The notes under the pieces were generated by a model. It made no database searches. It saw nothing but the letters and a program-made list of their open reading frames with translations, and was not told where the DNA came from. Both the position numbers and the translations under genes were made by a program. A stretch of DNA of 54,065 bases, the filler included, from Dimargaris cristalligena (lineage: Eukaryota), in NCBI GenBank assembly GCA_003614675.1. It is 2 parts of 2 records of this genome, joined end to end, with 100 filler letters (N's around TTAATTAATTAA, not from the genome) between each part and the next. Parts side by side here need not be neighbours in the genome. Positions count along the whole stretch, not along the records: positions 27,084 to 54,065 come from ML002529.1; 1 more part is not named here. One strand, written 5' to 3'. This document shows positions 18,186-35,276 of the stretch, one piece after another. Numbering within the stretch: position 1 is the first letter of the stretch; each line of letters starts with the position of its first letter.

Positions 18186-18885
18186 GCCGGGGATAATGGC
18201 TTTCGTGGGCCCCTCTCCTCACTTGGTTCCCCTGTTCAGTATGAGTCCCCTCTTCTCCCCTTCCTTATTCATTATGGCTAACATGTCTTTAGTTATGTTC
18301 CCTCCGTCATCCTATCCTTCTATGTTTATCAGTGTATTTTTGATCCCCCCCCTACTACCACCTTGTTCCTTTCCTCCTAATTGTAAGTATCTGTATTTTG
18401 CAACCAATTCTCTAGCATCAATATAGACTCTATAGATCCCTGGTTTCGGGTCTGTTCACTATTTAATATTTTTACTGGCCTCCCGACCTTGCGTGATTTA
18501 TGTACAGCACTTCAATAAACGTGTACAACATGGCCACAAACGGTGAGAATGACTGGTGTAATAGAAAAAATATATACCTCTAACATATTCACAATGAAAT
18601 GCTCGGTGTCGTATATAGTTTACACTGTCCCCGCCGTGGATAGGGCAGTTGACCTTGCGGGGTTTACAATAGCCATCCCCACACCACCAGACAGTCCTCT
18701 CTCTCTCCTTCACTCACCCGGATATATCATCCTATTACCAAGCAGCTTACCAGCTGATTTTTTTTAGTGTACCTTCTTTCCCTCTTCCCAAGCCTCAATT
18801 TTCCTGCTTTTGCTTTAGTGGATTTCCACTTCATACATACCCCCTCCCTTTTACCTAATTTCACGACTCATTATCGCCCAATAGT

Positions 18886-20460
18886 ATGGCTTGGGGAAAT
18901 CCTGGTTCCGGCTCGCATAGCGAAGTAGACGGGTGGATTGCCCGTCTCAAACGCCGGGATCCGACCTTCACCTCGCTCCACATTTTAAGTTTCCGCCGAT
19001 TGACCACCGACAATTTCGTGCGCCTGTTCGAGGCCATTGCGCGAAATAACACCTTGACCGAACTGGGCTGTTCGGGCCACCAGTTGGATGTGCGGGCCCT
19101 CGGTGCCCTGTCGGACATGTTGCAAGCCAACCACACTTTGCGGCGCCTGACGTTCGGTAGCGCCCACCAGTTCGGCGAACACCCCGACCATTTGGCCATC
19201 GTGGCGGAGGGACTGGCGGCGAACCGCGGGTTGCAAGAACTCGACCTCGAATACAAGGACCTAAGTTTGGCCCACGTGTCCGCTTTGCGCCTAATTTTGA
19301 CCCGGCCCGCGGGTTGGGAAGTGCTGAAGCTGGGGCGTAATAAACTGGGCGACGAGGCCATTGCCCGGCTCCTGGGCCCGATTCTGGCGGCGGGGAGTGC
19401 CGCCGGCCCGGGTACGCTGGTGAGTCGTATTGCGGATTTGGATCTGACGGATAATACCATCCAGGCCCAGGGTGCTGCGGATATCGCCCGTTGGCTAACA
19501 ACCCCCGTGCCCGCTACGGCGGCCCAGTCGGTCAGTCGGCTCGGATCGGTGAAGGCCTTTAAATTATCCTATAATCCGTTGGGTACGGAAGGCATGGCCC
19601 ATATTACCCAGGCCCTGGGTTCCGATAATACGACCCTGGAACGCCTGTGGCTAATTGACTGCATCCAGCCGGACGAAGGGGCGGCTACTACCGCTGCCGC
19701 GGCGGAACTGGCCTCGGTCACCACGAACAGTGACGGAGTGTCGGAAGTAGCGGCGGATACCCACGCCGTGCTCCCTTGGATTGAATCGCTTCGGACCTCG
19801 CTGCGTCGTAATACCACTCTACGCGGCCTATGGTTACACCGCTGCCAATTGGGCGACAATGGGCTTGTGCACTTGAGCCAAGGGCTCGGCCGCCATGCCC
19901 CCAAATCCCGACTGGCTACGCTTTCCCTCCGGGATAACCGCATCACCGACACGGGGGTGGTGGCCCTCGCCCAGGCCCTGGCCGATGATACCGTAGCGAC
20001 CTCCTCATTAACCAATTCGAGTAATGATGACGATGACAATACCCCATCATCCGTCCGGAAACTCGACCTTTCCGAGAATCGGATTTCCCCCGCCGGGCTG
20101 GCCCACCTCCTCCAATGCCCCCAGTTGGGGGAGCTTACGCTCTACGCCAACCAAGTGGCCATTGCCGGCCCGATTCCCGAACTCAGCAACGGCGATAATG
20201 CCGGGGCCCTACGACGATTGGACCTGAGCTGCAATGATATTGAAATCCCGGGTTTCGAATATTTTAGTCGTGCCCTGAGTGCCGGACTGTTGCCAGCGTT
20301 GGAAATCCTCGAGGTGGCCGGCAATGCTAGCCAGGATCAGCAAAGTGCGTGGGACCCCCTGGTAGACCAACTGACGGAACAGCGTCCGACCCTCAAGGTT
20401 TACTGGAAGAAATACGAAAGTGCGGATAATAGCGAGGCCTGGCCCTCTATGCCCGCTTAA
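18886..20460 (+). CDS. RNI-like leucine-rich repeat protein
   Basis: Intronless 524-aa ORF with repeated LxxLxLxxNxI/LxxxGxxxLxxxL units (LKLGRNKLGDEA, LDLTDNTIQAQGA, LSYNPLGTEGM, LSLRDNRITDTGV, LDLSENRISPAGL, LDLSCNDI). Confidence 0.88.
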   Translation: MAWGNPGSGSHSEVDGWIARLKRRDPTFTSLHILSFRRLTTDNFVRLFEAIARNNTLTELGCSGHQLDVRALGALSDMLQANHTLRRLTFGSAHQFGEHPDHLAIVAEGLAANRGLQELDLEYKDLSLAHVSALRLILTRPAGWEVLKLGRNKLGDEAIARLLGPILAAGSAAGPGTLVSRIADLDLTDNTIQAQGAADIARWLTTPVPATAAQSVSRLGSVKAFKLSYNPLGTEGMAHITQALGSDNTTLERLWLIDCIQPDEGAATTAAAAELASVTTNSDGVSEVAADTHAVLPWIESLRTSLRRNTTLRGLWLHRCQLGDNGLVHLSQGLGRHAPKSRLATLSLRDNRITDTGVVALAQALADDTVATSSLTNSSNDDDDNTPSSVRKLDLSENRISPAGLAHLLQCPQLGELTLYANQVAIAGPIPELSNGDNAGALRRLDLSCNDIEIPGFEYFSRALSAGLLPALEILEVAGNASQDQQSAWDPLVDQLTEQRPTLKVYWKKYESADNSEAWPSMPA

Positions 20461-24459: not shown

Positions 24460-25823
24460 TCAACAACCCATTTCTTTTATTCGTACCCTTTTAACCACGG
24501 GACCTCTACACCCTTGGTCCCTTCGCTCAGTATACTACTGCCAAATGTTTCTGTCCGTGTACTATCTGAAACAATAACCCCCCCTCACCTAGCTCCTTAT
24601 TTTCCATTTCCATTCGCTAATATGGGAATGTTTTCCTAGAGTTCTGCGCTCATAAACATCTTCTACTCATGTATACACATTTTGTCTACGTATGTTTTAC
24701 TACTTCACCTTCCATTTTATCCAATTAAATCTTGCTTCACTTCCGAATGACCTAGTCCATAAGCGGTCATGTCAGTGTGAGGATATCCAGCCGACTATTG
24801 ATCTAGCCCATATGTTAACTACCCAGGGATTCACTGGCTATTAGAGTGGTATTGGTGCTATACTCACCATATCCACCACTTCACCGGATTTTCCCGCCAA
24901 TAACGAGCGGTGCTATTGTATGAAATATGTAAATAGAAGAGTCCCGGGTGGTTATCATAGATAACATACTAGTTGTTTGCCGGCAATGTAAATTGCGAAA
25001 GTAGATCGTACGAATGAATTGATAAAGCCTCATGATCAACAAGGGATGCTCCAAGCTTGGCTATCCTAGTGATCGTCGGCTCGTCGGGATTCTCCAATTA
25101 TATTTTTCAACTCTCGTATGCTCCCCCTTCCCTTTTGCGGTATTTTTACCTTGCCCTCAATCATTGTCCCATAACTAAACCAGGTCCCATACAATATAGT
25201 ACAGGGTGGCCACTATTCTATTAAAAACCACTAAATCCCATCAGCTGGCCAACTGAAGGTGAGAGCATGTGGTGCCTAAAGGATTGAAGAGCGCTCATCG
25301 AACCCGCTGTATGGCTTGGGATGGGGTGGGCAGGACAATCTTGGATCCTCCTAATGCGTTAACCAATATCTGCTCTTAGGCAAGGTATCTGCGACTTTCA
25401 CGAAGAATCTTCCAGTCAAACCTGGGTAAGTTTTGGAAAATATTTCGGTAACTCACAAAAGAATTTCGCGTAAAGCAGCACCTCTCTCACCCCCCAGATC
25501 ATTGCACGAGTATTAGGTGAAGGAACTGAATAAAACCTTGAATTGCTAAAGAGTATCAGGGATACTTAAATGGCGCTTTCGCCTCACACTTCCAAACCAT
25601 ACAGCTTCTCTTCCTACGCTCCCCTCCCCACCCACTCGCACCATTCTTTTTATTTACCAGGTTGACTCCTGTTATTATATAATTCGATGATCGTTCCGCC
25701 TATAGTCGTCCGCTTGATATTTTTCTTGAAACCAGGAAGAAATCCAGCTCAGCCATTGTCCGCCTTAGATCGCAATCCCCACCCCGGCCCGTTTCTTTAA
25801 CCACTCGCTTCCCCGCAGCAATC

Positions 25824-26246
25824 ATGAAAGCCGTCACAATTCTGTTCGCCGCTTTACTCCATGGTGTCCTCGCCAGCCCTTTGGAACGCCGTCATCCCCT
25901 TCCCGACAGCAGCGATACTACGCTCGTCTTAGCGTATCAGCAACCAACGTGGCCCAAAGTAGAGGTCCCAGCCATCGCTGAGTGGGAGTCTCGGATCGAA
26001 GTCCTGAAGGAATTGTCATCGCCCGAGCTCGATGAAACTATCGAGAAGCTGCAAAAAAATCTCAGTAAGCTCGAGGACCTCGAGGAAGAGCTAATCAGAC
26101 TTGAGGAAGAAAGACGAACCGCAACCGATCCAGAAAGAATAAGCGCACTCGAGGACAACAGGAAAAAAATATACAAAAATCTAATGCAAATTGTTAGCGA
26201 AATGAAGGCAACTCCCACAGGGTTATTACCAACTCAAACACTCTGA
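25824..26246 (+). CDS. Small secreted protein with coiled coil, no recognisable family (effector candidate)
   Basis: 140 aa, intronless, good start context (atcATG). Signal peptide MKAVTILFAALLHGVLA|SP, then LERR (possible Kex2-type site), then heptad-rich LDETIEKLQKNLSKLEDLEEELIRLEEERR. Confidence 0.72.
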   Translation: MKAVTILFAALLHGVLASPLERRHPLPDSSDTTLVLAYQQPTWPKVEVPAIAEWESRIEVLKELSSPELDETIEKLQKNLSKLEDLEEELIRLEEERRTATDPERISALEDNRKKIYKNLMQIVSEMKATPTGLLPTQTL

Positions 26247-26983
26247 GGCCTATCCGCGCGACTCATATATTGGATCTTAATATGCCATGTCACCTTCCCT
26301 TGGCAAGACCCAGTCGATCCCCCGGTCGCTACCATTGGACTCCGCCCTTTATAATTAGCCACTGATCAGTCTACTCCTTTATCCTTTAGTATATAAATCA
26401 CCTACCCAGATTATTACGACCTATTATTCCCTTAGCCCACACTCACTTTAGTTTGTCCAATAAACACTTATACATTTACCCCTTTGATAGTAAGTGTGCA
26501 TCGGTGCTATTGATGATCGCGTGTCTATATTTTTATCACCTGTACTTGTTGAGTAAACGAGTATCGGTTAAGAATACTCCCGGTACTGTATTCAATATGG
26601 GCCTACTCACTCGGAATCTTTACAGACTGAGGGGGGTTGGCCCATACGACAAAGACCTTGGGCTGTCGATTATCCCGGTTTTCGGCAAGACATTTCCTTC
26701 TCCCAGTAGCGGAATTCCATATACTGTTTGGGTGTACTATGATAAATCCATATACATTGTTTAAGTTTCTTTTTACGTATTAACACAGTGGCGGGTACAT
26801 AACCAATGAATTTGTTCAACTGGGTTATATCAGATGAAGTAGAGTTTTATTTAATGTGAATCTCAGGCAGGCGACCTTTTGGTCATAAATGCTATCCACA
26901 GGGAACATGATAATGGGTACTTTGGTCAAAAACCCTCAAAAGCTACAGATATAGAGGGAAAGGACAGGAGGTAGAATAAAGAA

Positions 26984-27083
26984 NNNNNNNNNNNNNNNNN
27001 NNNNNNNNNNNNNNNNNNNNNNNNNNNTTAATTAATTAANNNNNNNNNNNNNNNNNNNNNNNNNNNNNNNNNNNNNNNNNNNN
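26984..27083. other. Artificial contig-joining spacer or assembly gap
   Basis: 44 N + TTAATTAATTAA (27028-27039, stop codons in all six frames) + 44 N, exactly 100 nt. Confidence 0.95.
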
Positions 27084-27599
27084 GGGATTTTATACTTCAA
27101 GTTGTGGTTGCCAAGGACCGACCTTTTGAGTTTCCAAACAAGTATTTTTTATATTGGATTACTTTGGTTAAAAACTTTATAAAGTTGGTTTTATTAATAT
27201 TTTCATTTAAGTGACAAACCAGTTTACCTGGAGAAGCCACCCTGCCCTTTTGATATATTTTTGTTGTTTATTTTAGTGGCCTGACACTACCACACTGTGA
27301 CACTGGAGGCTGGTTATTCCCAAGCCCTATTCATAAAGGATTGTCAATAGCATAAAAGTGGTAATATGAGGTCATCAATTGTCATAGTTTTAAAATCATC
27401 ATTGACTTTGATGACCTATAACTTTGTCAATAATGGACGGAAAAGCAAATGGAAGTATGATTTGGAAAGCTGAAGGAAAAGAAAATCAAAGTAAAAATTC
27501 ATGTAGAAAGAATAGGTTAAAAGGGAAGGGAAAAAAACTGGATATACTAGACAAAAAAGCCACTTCATACCTTGTATATAAATATAACTGTCAAATAGT

Positions 27600-28160
27600 A
27601 ATAATTTGTAGCTGTGGCAATCAAGGGGACACTCCACCTTGCCACAGTGGCAACTTCCCCTAAGGCCACCTCGGTCTCAACCCCCCCAAACCCAGCAAAG
27701 TCCAACATTCCACATTACATGATAAAATATGACAAGCCATCTAGTGGAAAGAAACCAGAGGTTCCCCCTCCTGCCAACTCTCCCAAAGGCATGCCAATGG
27801 AGTCCCTCAAATTGTTAGCAACACACATACATATAGGTAAAGAAATAACAAACTGGTCTATGGCCTAGAGGTAGATTTATGGGGAAGGATGGTGCCAAGA
27901 GTGGTACCCAAGAATGCCAATGGTAGCACAGCAGAGTGGATAATATATCACACTGGAGACTAGTGCAACCCCAAGGCAAGGCAGAACACCCAACTGTAGA
28001 ATGGCTAGGACATCTGGCCAATGAAATTGTCCAGCTCATCCCTCCCCTCACATCTGCCTCCACTGGGCAAGTGGTGAACAGCAGTCACCCAAGCCAATAG
28101 ACAACCAACTGAGTAGTATATAATGAATAGACATGACATAATCTTGACTCCTTAAGTTTT
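27600..28160 (+). mobile_element. Degenerate CpG-depleted coding relic, possibly a GCR1_C-domain (Crypton-like) fragment
   Basis: Only about 3 CpG in 27084-28200, with abundant TG/CA. With frameshifts and CpG back-mutation the relic reads W-YGLEG...YGEGW(R)-KSGTQE(R)QW...WII, reminiscent of GCR1_C. Contains stops and frameshifts. Confidence 0.3.
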
Positions 28161-28757
28161 GATTTAATAACCAATAAATAACTTTAAAAGCTTTCTTGTC
28201 CAACTCGGTGTCTTGTTATTTTGTCAAATCCTTCTTCCCTCCTTTGGAAACTTGGTTGATCCACAGGTCCCACTTGACCTAAACCGTTACACTAGTTTAT
28301 CCCCCTTTTTGTCCAAACATCCTGAGTTTTTTGAAGTACATCGTTCCTCATATTCCACCAACTAGTCTATAGTAAAACCCTTATAGTTTTTATGCAATTT
28401 TTTTATTTTCAAGTGCCAAGGGCAGAGGCTGTGAAACTTTCGTTGCAACAGCTGTACTCTATTATTCTACACTGAGACAATATAAATGCAAGGGGGGGGT
28501 AGGGTGTCACTTTGTCACCATGATTGGCAAAGCTGTTCTTTAGTTTGCATGCAACAACCAAGCAACCTTGTGTAAAATTTTAGAGAAGAAAAAATCAATA
28601 AATAGGTACTCAAACTCAGTCGGCCGTGGCAGACCCATTTTTTTAGTCAGCAAAAAGAAGCCTTTGGTGTTTATCGTTGGTAAAAAACAAAGCAAACCTG
28701 AAGGCCAGCGACCTCTATAATCCCTCAATAGCTAAATTCCGATGCGCTAAATACTTT

Positions 28758-28902
28758 ATATGGGTGACATACGACCCAATTGTAAAAGATTTAAATGATA
28801 TAAGAATGTGAAAATATGCGGGATATTTATTACCAACCAGTTGTGTTTGACTTATCCAACAGGTTCTTCGTTATACAGCCTGGTTGAACTTCTCTCATAA
28901 TA
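28758..28902 (+). repeat. Diverged dispersed repeat, copy 1 (about 145 bp)
   Basis: Aligns with 32666-32811 through shared blocks atatgggtga, gaaaat, gggatatttatt, caaccagt, ttatacagcct and ttgaact. Confidence 0.75.
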
Positions 28903-29759
28903 ACAAGTCGGTTTGGACATAATGTATGGCACTATTTGGTGGGGTTAATGCCAATGACTGAGCTGGACTGGGTATCTGGGAACCACCATGGCAGCTATTG
29001 TTAGGGAGTGCTTAGTGCTGCTTGGTTCATCAAGAAATAACATGTCGCTTAAGTTTCTTTGGAATATACACACCCCATTTCCCCCAAACATCGACCAATA
29101 TTGTAGGACGCCCTCAGGGATTAGTCTGTATTGAAATTTCGCTGTAGAACCAATTAAGATGTTGGGATCAAGTTGAAAATTGTCGTGGCTTATGCATTAT
29201 AGATTCACAGACCTGGAAACACCCCTGCGAAAGGCGGCCCCAGTTTAAGTTGACCCTCCTGCTGCGAGTAGTGGTTGCACATGATGCCCCCCATTGCTGC
29301 CCTAGCCTTGCTACGGCGGACTTATTGTTATATAGTAGTACCAATTATGGAAATAGTGGCTTGTAAAAGAATATACATCCATACCCAACTTCTATTACTT
29401 TCTGATACTTCGAAAACGGTCTAATGTTGGGGTGGGTCTTGTCCATTCGGCAAATAAAGGTCGCACAACTTAGTCATTGTATTACCGCCCTGGGCGAGTC
29501 ACCCAGGGTTATAGAAAGCCGCCAGTTTGCTCATTTCTTGTTGTTTTTTTCATTCAGGACTGAAGTGGTACCCAGCTTTCACAGCCTCGCCTGGATAATA
29601 CACATCCCCTTTATCATAAATGAACATATATATAAAGGTACTTTCCATCCCATCCCATTACTATCTTTAATTTTGGATGAATTTTTCGCTAGTTTGCTTT
29701 AGCTGATTGTTTATTACACTGTCCCTTATATTGCCACCACTAAGCTCACCTCCCTTACC

Positions 29760-31420
29760 ATGAGAAGCCCCATTCTGTTCTTGAGCGCTCCATTGGTCCA
29801 CCTTAGCCTATCTGTATCGGCCAAACCTGTCTTCGATCCCTCGGAAAAACTGCCAAAAGAGCTCCGCACTTGGGTATTAGAAATCCTTCCACTCCCTGAT
29901 CAAGTAGCGGCCGCGAACGTCAACCACGCATGGCGGGCCAAAATTTTGGAGAAACCCAAACGATTAAATATGATAGTAAGTATATAATTATATTATATGG
30001 TTTATCATTATCCAAACCTCAGGCTCATTCAGCTATTGAGCCTCCTAAGCATATGGCTGTAGGCCACTCTTTTTAAGAGCATGTCACTCCCCGCGTATGG
30101 TATACAGGCCAGCAGAAACCAAGTCTCTAGTACTAACTTGTATAACTATTGTAATGACACTGTTTAATTATTCAAACTACGAAAAACAATTTCGATTAGG
30201 CTGAAAGCGAGTTTTTAGCTAACCCTCTCAGTTACTACAGCTCGGATATCAGTGACAGCGAGGCTGATAAAAAATTTATGGACTTTAGTCCGCTCATTGG
30301 CAATCTTGTCCGATCGATTGTCGTCCAATCCATCCACTTAGCCCTTTTCTCCCTTCACTTAGATAAGCTGGGGAATCCTATTACTCGTGGCCTATTGTGG
30401 AACCATCCCGGAGCCGAACTCCCCATCTTTAAAGAAGCGATCCAGACTTTCAGGCCGGAGCTCGAATGGCTCAACAAAAGCGCCCACACTCTGAAGGTTA
30501 ACGAAGGCTCCGCTGAAGTGTTTGATACATTTTTCCCTATTCTGGGTAAGATCCGAACTGGCGATTCCGCCAATTTTGCCCCAATGATAAAGTACGTGTT
30601 TAGTGATACTTTTACTGAAGCCATGTATCGCCAGTTGGAGCACTGGGTGCCGTCAAGCTACGTCAACTTCCTAGCTATTCTTACATTCGTCCTAAATACC
30701 AGGTTTATTGCCCGGTCTGAAGTTGACCATATGCCCGAAATTGTTGCACTTAAAGTGCCGGAGCTTATCAAACGCAGCCTAAAAAATACATTGAACCAAG
30801 CGATCGGTCCTCTAGTGGTGCAAACCAGCGACTTTCAACGGATCATCGATATCGGCCAAGTGATCAAAGTCACGAATTTAGAAATTTCCAAAAATACAAT
30901 GCGTAGGGGTTTGCGTTCAGAAGAAAGGATGAATATGCCCCCAATGGACTCAATACCCTCCGGGCGGATTTCTTTCCCGACATTGATCAATACAGCCATT
31001 TTAATCGCTGAAATTCAGAAAAGACGCTCACTCGTCGAAGCCCTTTCGGACCCCGAGTTTGAGGGTATGCCCCAAGATATTCTAGGCTACTGTGCCGTTA
31101 AAGCCGGCATTATCAAACGCACTCTTTGCCCGAAAAATTGGCTCACCCCTAGTATGGAACGTCTCATCGACCAGCTGAAGGTATCGGAGGGTGATTTTCC
31201 TCAAAGTTGCGTCAGCCTTTTCCTTGAGAACGGCTTATCCGTTTTCCTGGATACTGACGGTGATGCCTCAGTTCGATTCTACCCGTTTAACACTAAATCC
31301 CCTGAACTAAAAATCCCCAATGACCTTTCAACTAACCCCGTTGTATTTGGGGTTGTACCTGCTATTAATGTAGAACCAGGTGATATAGTTGGCGAGGCAC
31401 CGCCTGGATTCCAACTTTAA
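29760..31420 (+). CDS. Secreted protein with an N-terminal F-box-like motif and an orphan C-terminal domain
   Basis: Exons 29760-29975 and 30200-31420; intron GTAAGT...TACTAAC(30131)...TAG, phase 0; 478 aa. This joins two ORFs from the track. Signal peptide MRSPILFLSAPLVHLSLSVSA|KP; residues 31-59 LPKELRTWVLEILPLPDQVAAANVNHAWR fit the F-box pattern. Confidence 0.75.
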
Positions 31421-32665
31421 GGAGTCTATTATTGGGCGTGATATGTTTACCTTTATATATTTTTACGGCACTATTATTTGCAATAAATTACAGCTTAAAG
31501 GTGGTTGTATTCATGTTTAGTCCCCGAAATATAAAATTCTCAACCCCATTTCCGCATCTCGAGAATGAACGGGGCCAACTTACATTCCCCATTACCGGTT
31601 GTCAATTGGAGTTTGGTCCTAATACCACATCAACACTACCCTGAATTGGTTTACCAGAATAGATAAGAATGGAGGAGTACACCTATTTGTCGATTAGTTC
31701 ATTAACGGGATGCTTGAGAATAGCAAATGCAAGCAATCCCAATGGAAGAAATTGGCCAAACAAGCCGGGACTTTGAATTATTCCTGAATATTGATTAAAG
31801 GATTGTATGAGAACTGATTCAAAGATCAGCCGGCAGTTACCTTTCCAGTCACCATTGTCGTAGGGGAGAATCATAGTAAACACAGGAATTCCTATGCATA
31901 GAAAAAGTAAGCTTTGGGGATGTTCATAATAAGGCTACAAACAGCGATTTATAAATAAAATTAATTCCGGATACCAATGTACAGTATAGTCGACTTCAGA
32001 AGGGGATATCAAATAATTGGGCAATGATCTGTGTGATAATTGTACGAAATTGCTAGGATTTAAAAAGACTGGTGGGCGATGGATATTGGCACAGATCGAA
32101 CAAGGAAGGCGTTAGTGGATATTGCTGAGTGGTATAATGTCAATATGGCAAATAACGGAGTTGGGATAATCAGTAGGGAGGCAAAATATAAGAATAGTGA
32201 AACAATACTGGCTAAACAGAGGTAATGTAGTGCTACCCGGAGGTTGAAACTTATCCCCGGACTATGGATAGCCAGTCCTCATTGTCAGAGGGCGGAATAT
32301 GCCGCGATATACAATGACGGTATCATTCCCGTCATTTTCCCACAAAAAATACCGCCTTTACTGTGGCATACATAATGAGACGGGGTCCCCCCTTTTAGAG
32401 GGGACCCCGCCTTTATTGCCCAAAGATAATAGTTCAATATAAGGGTGGTCGGCCTTGCAGACCGCCCCCCTTTTTCTCCTTATCTTTTCTCTTTTTTCGT
32501 TGGGGTTCTCCCACCCTCACCTCTTACCCCACGCCTGCACTCTCCCTTTACTGCGCGCGGGTTTTCTCTTTTAGCCATATCTCTGCGACCAGTTTACTGG
32601 TCCCCCTCTATTATGTATCGAAATTAGTTCAATAAATTGTCGTGCAGGCAATAAAAAACAACAAA

Positions 32666-32811
32666 ATATGGGTGAAGTTCAGCTCAGTTGCATAAGGTTT
32701 TAACTGTTATGCGTATGGGAAAATCGGTGGGATATTTATTTTCAACCAGTAGTATTTACCTCACCAAATGGATTTTTCTTTATACAGCCTAATTGAACTA
32801 CTCCCATATTA
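32666..32811 (+). repeat. Diverged dispersed repeat, copy 2 (about 145 bp)
   Basis: Direct-orientation partner of 28758-28902. Confidence 0.75.
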
Positions 32812-32877
32812 TCTATTTCTTTATACTCGCGGTTTACATTTAAAAGTCCACTGTTCTTTCTTGCATTAAAAGTCCGA

Positions 32878-34115
32878 CCTATTTTTCAGTGGATTCCTTA
32901 TTATTTTATCTCATTCTATTCTTGACCTTTTTCTGTACATCCTTTTCCTGCAGAAAAGCACATGTCCCAAGGGGTATATTATTAATATTACCTATTTCTG
33001 ACTAACTATGCTAGTTTATTTAGTTACTATATGTTCTTTCATTTTTAATCACTTAAAATACCCCCCATAGACTAAAATAATCAACAAATCTAGCTATCCA
33101 GAGATGTCTGTCATCCTTTAGCTATTTTTTCCCCTATCTCTCCAATTTTATTGATACTCCTATAGTATTTCTAACAGTAATTCCATCACTTACTGATCAC
33201 AATAGCCCCTATACAGTGCCTAGTTCCAGTAAAATGGGGCTATATGATTTGGGCCACATAAGTTTATATCTTAAATATGCAAATGATGTACTGGACCTCA
33301 GTTCTTCTTACTTAACCATGTTCCCCAGTAATAGTACATATATATAATATATTTAAATATTCCTTAATAGATATTGTAGGTTATCAGATTGTCTAATCCA
33401 CCTTAATCCAGCTAGCTTAGTATCCAACTATATTAGGCCTTATAATGCTATATTAGCTTTCTTATAGTCATTCCCAGTACTATGGGATCATCCCTTATTA
33501 TATAACCCTCCCCCTAGCTAGACTCTGCTTATTTACACTAATCACCCAATTACTGATCTAAAGACTCTTCTGGTTACCATCAGGTCCCCAAGATCCAAAC
33601 AGCTGTCTGGTTGGCCTATTTACCTATATCTTAGTCTTAGTAGTATCCTTACCTTAGGAACTCCCTCTAGAGTTGTCCCTGTATATATATAACTGGGTCC
33701 CATTAGGACCAGTTAGTTTCCTTAGCTTATTCTTACCCCCTGGTTTACCTCTAATAAACTCTATATATACTTACCTTCTTATACCTAACTAGTAGGTATA
33801 GCCACTGCATATCCCTTACCTATACCTGCATTAAGGCCTTCATTAGTTATCACTATACCCCTACCTAATACTAATGACCTACTTAGCTAAGCCTGAGCCC
33901 CATCTATTATTAGAAGCCTAACCTCAGGACTCTTAATAGACTATGAGTAGTTAACCCAGGTAATATAGGTATTTTATTTTACATATTTTTTTTCCCCTGC
34001 CTATACTAAAGTGTATTTCCCTTATTAAGAACTACTCACTATGATCCAGAAGATTCTTCTGTGATTTCCAATAACCTAACACATCTTCTACTGACTAGAA
34101 ATTAGGGTACCCTAG
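32878..34115 (-). mobile_element. Hypermutated transposon relic, probably the gag-protease region of an LTR retrotransposon
   Basis: No CpG in about 1.24 kb, dense TA/TAG/CTA, no ORFs. The minus strand retains TTG GAT ACT aa GCT AGC (LDT[G]AS-like, about 33411-33427) and CCC ATT TTA CTG GAA CTA (PILL[G]L-like, 33221-33238), about 60 codons apart, which is retropepsin spacing. Confidence 0.5.
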
Positions 34116-35276
34116 CGATAAAAGCTTTTTAATGTACTAGCTGAATATTTAAATACTAGTCATCCCTATACAAACTACCTCATTCTATTATATTAGATGT
34201 TATATTCGAAATATTCTCAAGTTTGAGTCTAGCTGTGCTCAAACCTAGGTTGCATGATCATTCATTATGATGCTATTAGGATGGAGCTGTAGATATTACA
34301 CAAAGAGCTTTTTTAGATTGCTGATACTAGTTGCCAAATTGCCAAATAATAACTAGTTGTTTATCCTACCAATTGAGAATTATATTATAGAGACACCTAC
34401 TCATTTCCACTGCCTCTCCTGCTTCGGTGAGCATTCCTTCAACAATCACCCATATTTTACCACATATTTCTTGGATTCATAATTGTGGCATATCCTTTCT
34501 GGCGAGTGTTCGGCTCTTAGATCAAAGTACTTTTCTATCTGGCCATTCTTGGGTCCAGGTAGGGTAATATAATTATTAGACCCAAGCCCGTCATCTGTCA
34601 TTCATCTGGGTATGGATCAGTGAACCAGTTATGCAGAAGATTTGCAAGCCGCTTGTCATGGTTGTTTTAATGGCCGATAAAAATACCACTACGCTCCCCA
34701 GTTCGTTGAACCAGCTCTAACATCAAGCCCGATATCCCTAAGTTGATTAAGGACCACTGATCAGTTGAAATCTTTAGGTAGGTACTGGCTACTCCACGGT
34801 AGAGTAATCCCGACCAAGTCATACATTATTTTAGTAGGGTTCCTAAACTACAGTACGGCCATTCCGTAATATAAACCCTAGTTACGATACTGACCCAGTA
34901 ATGAATATGTTATAATTTATTGATACTGGGATTAACACGGTGTAGTTCATGATACTCATCCCGGCTCCGCCATTGAAGGCAAGGTTATATAACCAGGGAA
35001 GAGTCTCATTGAAAAATGCGGGAATGCAAATAAGAAATGCGTAAATTTTTTAGGTAAGAGTCGTTCACTATAAGAAGCGGAGCCAAGTGGGGAATATATA
35101 TATTGGTAACATCTGGAATGAGGGGTGCGCCGTAAAAAAAACTGTTATTGCGAGCGAATAAGACGAAGTGGGTTATAAGAGAAACAATGAAGCGTGCTGG
35201 GTGAGTGACTAATATATGTATGTAATAATATAGAAGAAGGGAGGAAGAGGGCTCCAAAAAAAACGAGACCGCCAAC

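Follow-up and report, generated by a model that had tools for sequence, protein, structure and literature searches.

An F-box protein is normally found in the cytosol or the nucleus, and eukaryotes commonly show expansions of this class within single lineages. We know of no partner for an F-box in the secretory pathway or the extracellular space, and the examples known to us of mimicry of the Skp1-Cul1-F-box (SCF) ubiquitin ligase come so far from bacteria, viruses and a gall midge. One of the bacterial examples is VirF of Agrobacterium, an F-box effector of the same mimicry. The Legionella proteins AnkB/LegU1 are described, in the parts of the literature drawn on here, as F-box effectors that redirect the host SCF, and the available part of one article presents RipG7 of Ralstonia as an F-box effector docking on host Skp1 (PMC4617103). 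In the same part of that article, the SSGP-71 effectors of the Hessian fly (Mayetiola destructor) carry a signal peptide, an N-terminal F-box and leucine-rich repeats (LRRs), bind host Skp and include some members without an F-box (PMC4617103); they are also covered in the available sections of a second article (PMC7330099). A fungal case is NLS_30765 of Rhizophagus clarus, a predicted secreted F-box-like (PF12937) effector candidate which, in the available portion of the study, is proposed to interfere with the host SCF (PMC4746824). Here, these systems are compared with a gene of the fungus Dimargaris cristalligena that lies at positions 29760-31420 (+ strand) of a 54,065-nt stretch of assembly GCA_003614675.1, referred to below as the window. 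Read from the sequence, the gene comprises two exons and encodes 478 aa after splicing, with a predicted architecture of a cleavable signal peptide, an F-box and a family-specific helical domain.

An earlier reading of the window, referred to here as the original prediction, had proposed that an early-diverging fungal parasite delivers F-box proteins into host cells. What it said of the organism agrees with the literature, since the Dimargaritales, in the available part of a genome paper, parasitise Mucoromycota and some Ascomycota by means of an appressorium and a haustorium (PMC9866270). Its additional remark that it knew of no such system characterised in early-diverging fungi has to be softened, as SSGP-71 (PMC4617103) and the R. 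clarus candidate (PMC4746824), in the sections of these articles available to us, make the Dimargaris family less unprecedented. The nearest functional analogue is SSGP-71: as far as the accessible text describes the insect proteins, both families are eukaryotic, combine an export leader with an N-terminal F-box (by predicted sequence anatomy in Dimargaris), have expanded within one lineage and contain some members without an F-box. The target-binding part of SSGP-71 consists of LRRs and the insect injects a plant, whereas the Dimargaris proteins carry an unmatched helical domain, would act from fungus to fungus and are known from sequence alone. The bacterial effectors RipG/GALA, AnkB/LegU1 and VirF provide the precedent of a parasite F-box that docks on host Skp1, as is proposed for the Dimargaris family; they are delivered by type III/IV secretion and carry LRR or ankyrin domains, in contrast to the Sec-type leader predicted here, and the F-box is the only similarity. 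Pfam scans gave no LRR or ankyrin match at E<=1 for the 14 family members covered, nor any for exon 2 at E<=10, and the Dimargaris family is therefore not a member of the SSGP-71, RipG or AnkB families; it would at most work like them. R. clarus NLS_30765 resembles the window protein in coming from an early-diverging fungus in intimate host contact and, in the portion of the study available, in being known by prediction only. It differs in being a single candidate from a plant (arbuscular mycorrhizal) symbiont, and no homology was seen, all 14 hits of the family search described below being from D. cristalligena.

The leader occupies residues 1-21 (29760..29822, + strand), a position that the original prediction had given correctly, as it had that of the LPKEL...AWR motif (29850-29936). 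By its anatomy it looks like a signal peptide, with a basic n-region (MRS), a 15-residue hydrophobic core (ILFLSAPLVHLSLSV) and a c-region (VSA, before K) with small residues at -3 and -1. The core has a mean Kyte-Doolittle (KD) hydropathy of 1.95 and a best 8-mer of 2.26; the best 19-mer, at 1.47, does not reach what a typical membrane span would show, and the uncharged spans hold Pro, Ser and His. The criteria applied (n-, h- and c-regions, an h-region of 7-15 residues, small -3/-1 residues) were scored with our own script rather than with a trained predictor. An uncharged hydrophobic leader is present in ten of the 14 paralogue lineages, corresponding to ten of the 11 with a complete N-terminus, and the architecture of leader and F-box is not confined to the window gene. 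The leader-bearing lineages are the window gene/P0023, P0002, P0024 (judged by eye), P0015, P0016, P0017, P0009, P0012, P0013/P0021 and P0014, and those with an incomplete N-terminus are P0005, P0008 and P0018/P0010. Identity in the N-terminal region falls as low as 12-38% among paralogues and yet the leader is kept, which suggests that a physical property is conserved, as expected for signal peptides.

The orientation of the leader was assessed with the charge-difference rule (Hartmann/von Heijne), which relates flanking charges to the orientation of insertion. The difference delta(C-N) over the core lies between 0 and -4 in all ten N-termini for which it was computed, being negative in nine, and predicts an N-in/C-out insertion in which the C-terminal side, including the F-box, is lumenal (translocated). 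This speaks against a membrane anchor facing the cytosol. The window protein has no second segment resembling a transmembrane helix (best 19-mer KD 1.54), and its C-terminus (...PPGFQL) is neither of the HDEL/KDEL type nor a hydrophobic tail. AlphaFold models the first 26 residues of paralogue P0002 as disordered, with a predicted local distance difference test (pLDDT) score of about 37. A mitochondrial presequence was also considered and rejected by eye, because the leader contains a single Arg and shows no amphipathic basic pattern, and its hydrophobic core is uninterrupted.

The leader is followed by a predicted domain at residues 29-72 (LPKEL...VN.AWR..., 29844..29975, + strand), which we conclude to be a divergent but genuine F-box homologue. 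The motif LPKELRTWVLEILPLPDQVAAANVNHAWR has the L-P-x-E ... hydrophobic ... W signature, carried by three short helices, and aligns with the F-box of Fbw7. In a sequence search of the PDB with exon 1, the Fbw7 F-box was the sole match at E<=10 (E 1), over residues 26-60. The link to a curated family runs through paralogue P0012, which passes the cutoff of PF00646 (23.9 bits versus 20.5, E 3.7e-5) and whose residues 31-73 align with residues 29-70 of the window protein (BLASTP E 8e-4), in register with the Pfam F-box of P0012 at residues 31-71. Sub-threshold matches to PF12937 were obtained for P0015 (18.9 bits) and P0014 (17.5 bits), and F-box matches at E 0.04-0.06 for P0002 and P0024. Overall, F-box-type matches at E<=1 occur in seven of the 14 lineages, and no other Pfam family recurs. 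When the family profile was compared with the PDB, the same profile positions matched the F-boxes of Cdc4 (E 0.23) and Fbw7 (0.86) and chain 1fs1_A (1.7), which we take to be the Skp2 F-box chain although the table gives it a different name. Fbw7, Cdc4 and Skp2, the best sequence matches in the PDB, share the L-P-x-E-L ... W-R motif and the three-helix layout with the window protein; they lack an N-terminal export signal, and their substrate domains are of the WD40 or LRR type, unlike the Dimargaris proteins with their leader and novel helical domain. Within the family, E34 is invariant and W58 nearly invariant (alignment A3). In the model of P0002, helices at residues 33-42, 45-54 and 56-79 reproduce the F-box layout with pLDDT values of 65-90. 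For residues 29-72 of the window protein, the modelled helices are 33-42, 46-51 and 56-71.

Exon 2 (30200..31420, + strand; 406 codons and a TAA stop) encodes the family-specific C-terminal domain. The AlphaFold 2 model of P0002 shows it as all-alpha, with a pLDDT of about 90, together with an insert that is both variable and disordered and a small beta hairpin at the C-terminal end. The C-terminal part has no Pfam family, and the comparison of exon 2 with the ESM Atlas gave no usable neighbour. Foldseek with the P0002 model returned nothing at E<=0.001 (best E 0.62), and the best of 48,161 chains compared by VIA-align reached Z 4.8 (the C-terminal part of Sec8, and Pex15), which is within the noise expected for helical proteins. 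Weak matches to ankyrin repeats make up five of the 14 PDB profile hits (profile positions ~269-355, E 0.16-0.9); with no Pfam ankyrin and no convincing structural match, an ankyrin-repeat reading of the C-terminal third is a lead and not a claim. Numbered on the 478-aa form, Cys370 (GYCAV, codon at 31091..31093, + strand; alignments A2 and A3) and Cys409 (Q.C, codon at 31208..31210, + strand; alignment A2) are found in every member that covers the respective column, a conservation that would suit a disulfide.

The distribution of the family was determined by running a HMMER profile exhaustively against 1,835,955,588 representative proteins. Fourteen proteins matched at E<=0.001, and for six of these E was 1e-30 or lower. 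All 14 are from D. cristalligena, in two assemblies and on different contigs, and they appear to represent a family of about 14 paralogue lineages restricted to this species. With alignment identities to P0002 of 18-67%, the family is expanded, lineage-restricted and fast-diverging in a parasite. A non-haploid state is considered possible for D. cristalligena RSA 468 in the part of the genome paper that deals with it (PMC9866270), and some near-identical lineages could be alleles, for which the 18-67% identities of the counted lineages are far too low. The C-terminal domain is common to every relative of sufficient length, and no relative in this search, which was seeded with the whole protein, joins the leader and F-box to another domain. 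The original prediction had seen in the signal peptide and F-box of exon 1 a shuffle-ready module to be found with variable C-termini. The shared C-terminal domain does not agree with this picture, and neither does the boundary of exon 1 serve as a module edge, as the third F-box helix in the P0002 model spans the exon junction and continues into exon 2 and the C-terminal domain. A word-indexed search with exon 1 found P0001 only and missed known paralogues, and another with alignment A2, the candidate list of which was saturated, gave four matches and missed members of its own query; both are thus uninformative, the former specifically on other architectures. The window holds no second family copy, tblastn with 22 family proteins having matched this locus alone.

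A leader placed directly before a conserved F-box, for which no partner is known in the secretory route, is most simply explained by action in the cytoplasm of another cell. The tentatively favoured reading, possible but held at less than even confidence, is that these proteins form a secreted F-box family that hijacks the host SCF. The sequences show the architecture, its conservation and its confinement to this species; secretion, translocation, Skp1 binding and substrates we infer as follows. The leader would direct the nascent chain co-translationally into the endoplasmic reticulum (ER) of the parasite and so shield the parasite's own Skp1 from the F-box. The mature protein, its F-box within about ten residues of the new N-terminus, would be secreted at the haustorium and enter the host cytoplasm, where the F-box would dock on Skp1-Cul1 of the host fungus. 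The C-terminal helical domain might then recruit host proteins for ubiquitination, or the protein might merely titrate Skp1. Features resembling those of effectors, namely hits confined to D. cristalligena, their location on different contigs and high divergence, are counted in favour of this proposal, as are the AT-rich locus, the two conserved cysteines and the haustorial habit of the order. The fuller version, in which about a dozen secreted F-box proteins pass through haustoria and mark proteins of the host mould for destruction by means of a new helical recognition domain, as the first such family acting from fungus to fungus, is somewhat doubtful.

To our knowledge, the effectors of biotrophic mycoparasites are almost unknown, and Skp1 is highly conserved among fungi. 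If the family were secreted and bound host Skp1, SCF mimicry would also operate between two fungi. The ubiquitin machinery of the parasite is almost that of its host, and one must then ask how the parasite would keep from being harmed by its own proteins. The helical domain would then represent a new substrate-recognition fold, and the approximately 14 paralogues a tractable set for finding the host proteins that a mycoparasite must remove. If, on the other hand, the leader is not an export signal, what is left of the finding is that ordinary F-box adaptors have expanded in this one species. The literature search found no paper linking Dimargaris to F-box proteins, and the main texts of two genome papers (PMC9866270, PMC6784888) make no mention of F-box proteins, a secretome or such effectors.

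Several observations weigh against host-SCF hijacking. The F-box check in Pfam that the original prediction had called for is divided in its outcome: exon 1 of the window gene reaches 12.8 bits with PF12937 (E 0.11), below the cutoff of 24.3, and the full public model P0023 (428 aa) has zero Pfam matches; support comes from P0012, the paralogue that passes in register. The structural match that had also been anticipated was not obtained. The model of the 72-aa exon 1 is poor (pLDDT 60.8, predicted template modelling score 0.23), Foldseek found no match to it at E<=10, and VIA-align reached Z 2.4 at best, with no F-box chain. The VIA-align list for the 519-aa model was dominated by the large domain, and a phmmer search of the PDB with P0012 found FliT only (E 0.81). 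The leader and F-box are not strictly coupled either, since P0017 and P0009 keep the leader and C-terminal domain with no detectable F-box and the P0019/P0011 lineage keeps the F-box-like stretch with no leader in either gene model. Furthermore, the signal peptide is called by heuristics, the family proteins are large (~410-550 aa) and cysteine-poor, unlike classical small secreted effectors, the restriction to one species may partly reflect the sampling of Dimargaritales, and we know of no route across the host membrane for D. cristalligena.

Part of this evidence would equally fit a secreted or secretory-pathway protein in which vestigial F-box helices cap the helical domain and do not bind Skp1, and which acts outside the cytosol, for instance at the haustorial interface or in the cell wall. 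The evidence for the leader applies to such a protein just as well, the F-box scores are mostly sub-threshold (one of the 14 lineages passes the Pfam cutoff), the F-box is lost beyond detection in P0017 and P0009 while leader and C-terminal domain are kept, the third helix runs into the C-terminal domain, and the two family-wide cysteines would be consistent with an oxidising compartment. We nevertheless consider this explanation unlikely, because the L-P-x-E...W pattern is recognisable in paralogues at 18-38% identity, with its Glu invariant and its Trp nearly so, which argues for selection on the motif itself, and because P0012 has a bona fide Pfam F-box. An ordinary endogenous SCF adaptor, its hydrophobic N-terminus being an anchor on an organelle surface or irrelevant, would be in keeping with the usual cytosolic or nuclear location of F-box proteins and their frequent lineage expansions, with the housekeeping genes next to the locus, with a large and helical protein like many adaptors, and with an alternative JGI model of P0020 that places the hydrophobic stretch 35 residues from the N-terminus; the heuristic call of the signal peptide also leaves room for it. 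The short cores with Pro, Ser and His that end in small -3/-1 residues do not fit such an anchor, however, delta(C-N) values of zero or less in ten of ten N-termini predict the F-box side to be translocated, and a leader without function is hard to square with its conservation in ten of the 11 complete lineages, so that an endogenous role is likewise judged unlikely. Finally, the frame could be unexpressed, or the true start or splicing could remove the leader, in which case the gene would be decaying or an artefact of annotation. The gene models of the family do disagree in detail (428 versus 478 aa here, truncated or extended versions elsewhere), and P0005 and P0008 are fragments. Still, an artefact is very improbable given an intact 406-codon open frame with canonical splice sites and a branch point, a protein that is ~99% identical between two independent D. 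cristalligena assemblies, a start architecture common to ten lineages, and an ATG at 29760 that is the first after an in-frame stop located 57 nt upstream.

The gene structure on which the hijacking proposal builds can be followed in the public gene models. Exon 1 (29760..29975, + strand) has 72 codons, ends in ATGATA before GTAAGT, encodes the leader and the F-box-like motif and is identical to the first 72 aa of P0023. It is followed by intron 1 (29976..30199, + strand), a phase-0 intron of 224 nt (GTAAGT...TAG, GC 0.36) with a CTAAC 63 nt upstream of the 3' site, the retention of which would give in-frame stops. The two-exon gene with its 29975/30200 junction, as originally predicted, is borne out by both public models and by the family alignment, in which the consensus N-x-x-A crosses the junction with its spacing unchanged and thereby supports this exact junction. 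BJ085DRAFT_30410 (P0023) corresponds letter for letter to 29760-29975, 30200-30868 and 31019-31417, and H4R33_002849 (P0001), from the second assembly, has the same 29975/30200 junction. The UniRef name of P0023 is 'F-box domain-containing protein', and the gene is thus already annotated. The predicted length of 478 aa is less settled than the junction: both public models treat an in-frame, stop-free stretch of 150 nt (30869..31018, + strand; GT..AG) as a second intron, which shortens the product to 428 aa, and the original prediction had read it as coding. The 3' end of this stretch encodes NTAILIAEIQ, which in the alignment is the first half of a helix retained by most paralogues, and for this reason we lean towards the 478-aa form. 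The P0001 model, in addition, stops early (DGDASVI) relative to the open frame and the paralogues, and the public models of the window gene probably need revision.

Outside the coding region, a TATA-like element (TATATATAAA, 29627..29636, + strand) lies about 125 nt 5' of the ATG, and an AATAAA (31482..31487, + strand) 62 nt 3' of the stop codon; both were read from the sequence and their functions are putative. Downstream of the TATA-like element and still before the start codon there is an upstream open frame of nine codons (ATG...TGA, 29677-29706, + strand), out of frame with the main ATG. No other long open frame occurs in the AT-rich, gene-poor region of about 9 kb around the gene (26300-35000, GC 0.28-0.45), on either side of which lie GC-richer (0.50-0.59) housekeeping genes. 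Direct repeats of ~118-150 nt with 75% identity flank the gene at 28785-28902 and 32694-32811, some 0.9 kb before the ATG and 1.3 kb past the stop codon; they could be what is left of a small dispersed element. An open frame at 25683-26246 (+ strand), some 3.5 kb upstream of the gene, belongs to no Pfam family and may encode another small secreted protein. It includes MKAVTILFAALLHGVLASPLERR, a start that clearly resembles a signal peptide, and after it a charged tail of coiled-coil appearance. A 533-aa open frame at 18859-20460 (+ strand) has no F-box within that frame and carries leucine-rich repeats of the LRR_6 type (E 3e-18), a repeat type common in F-box/LRR adaptors. At 26984-27083, two runs of 44 N with TTAATTAATTAA between them form a scaffold-gap linker.

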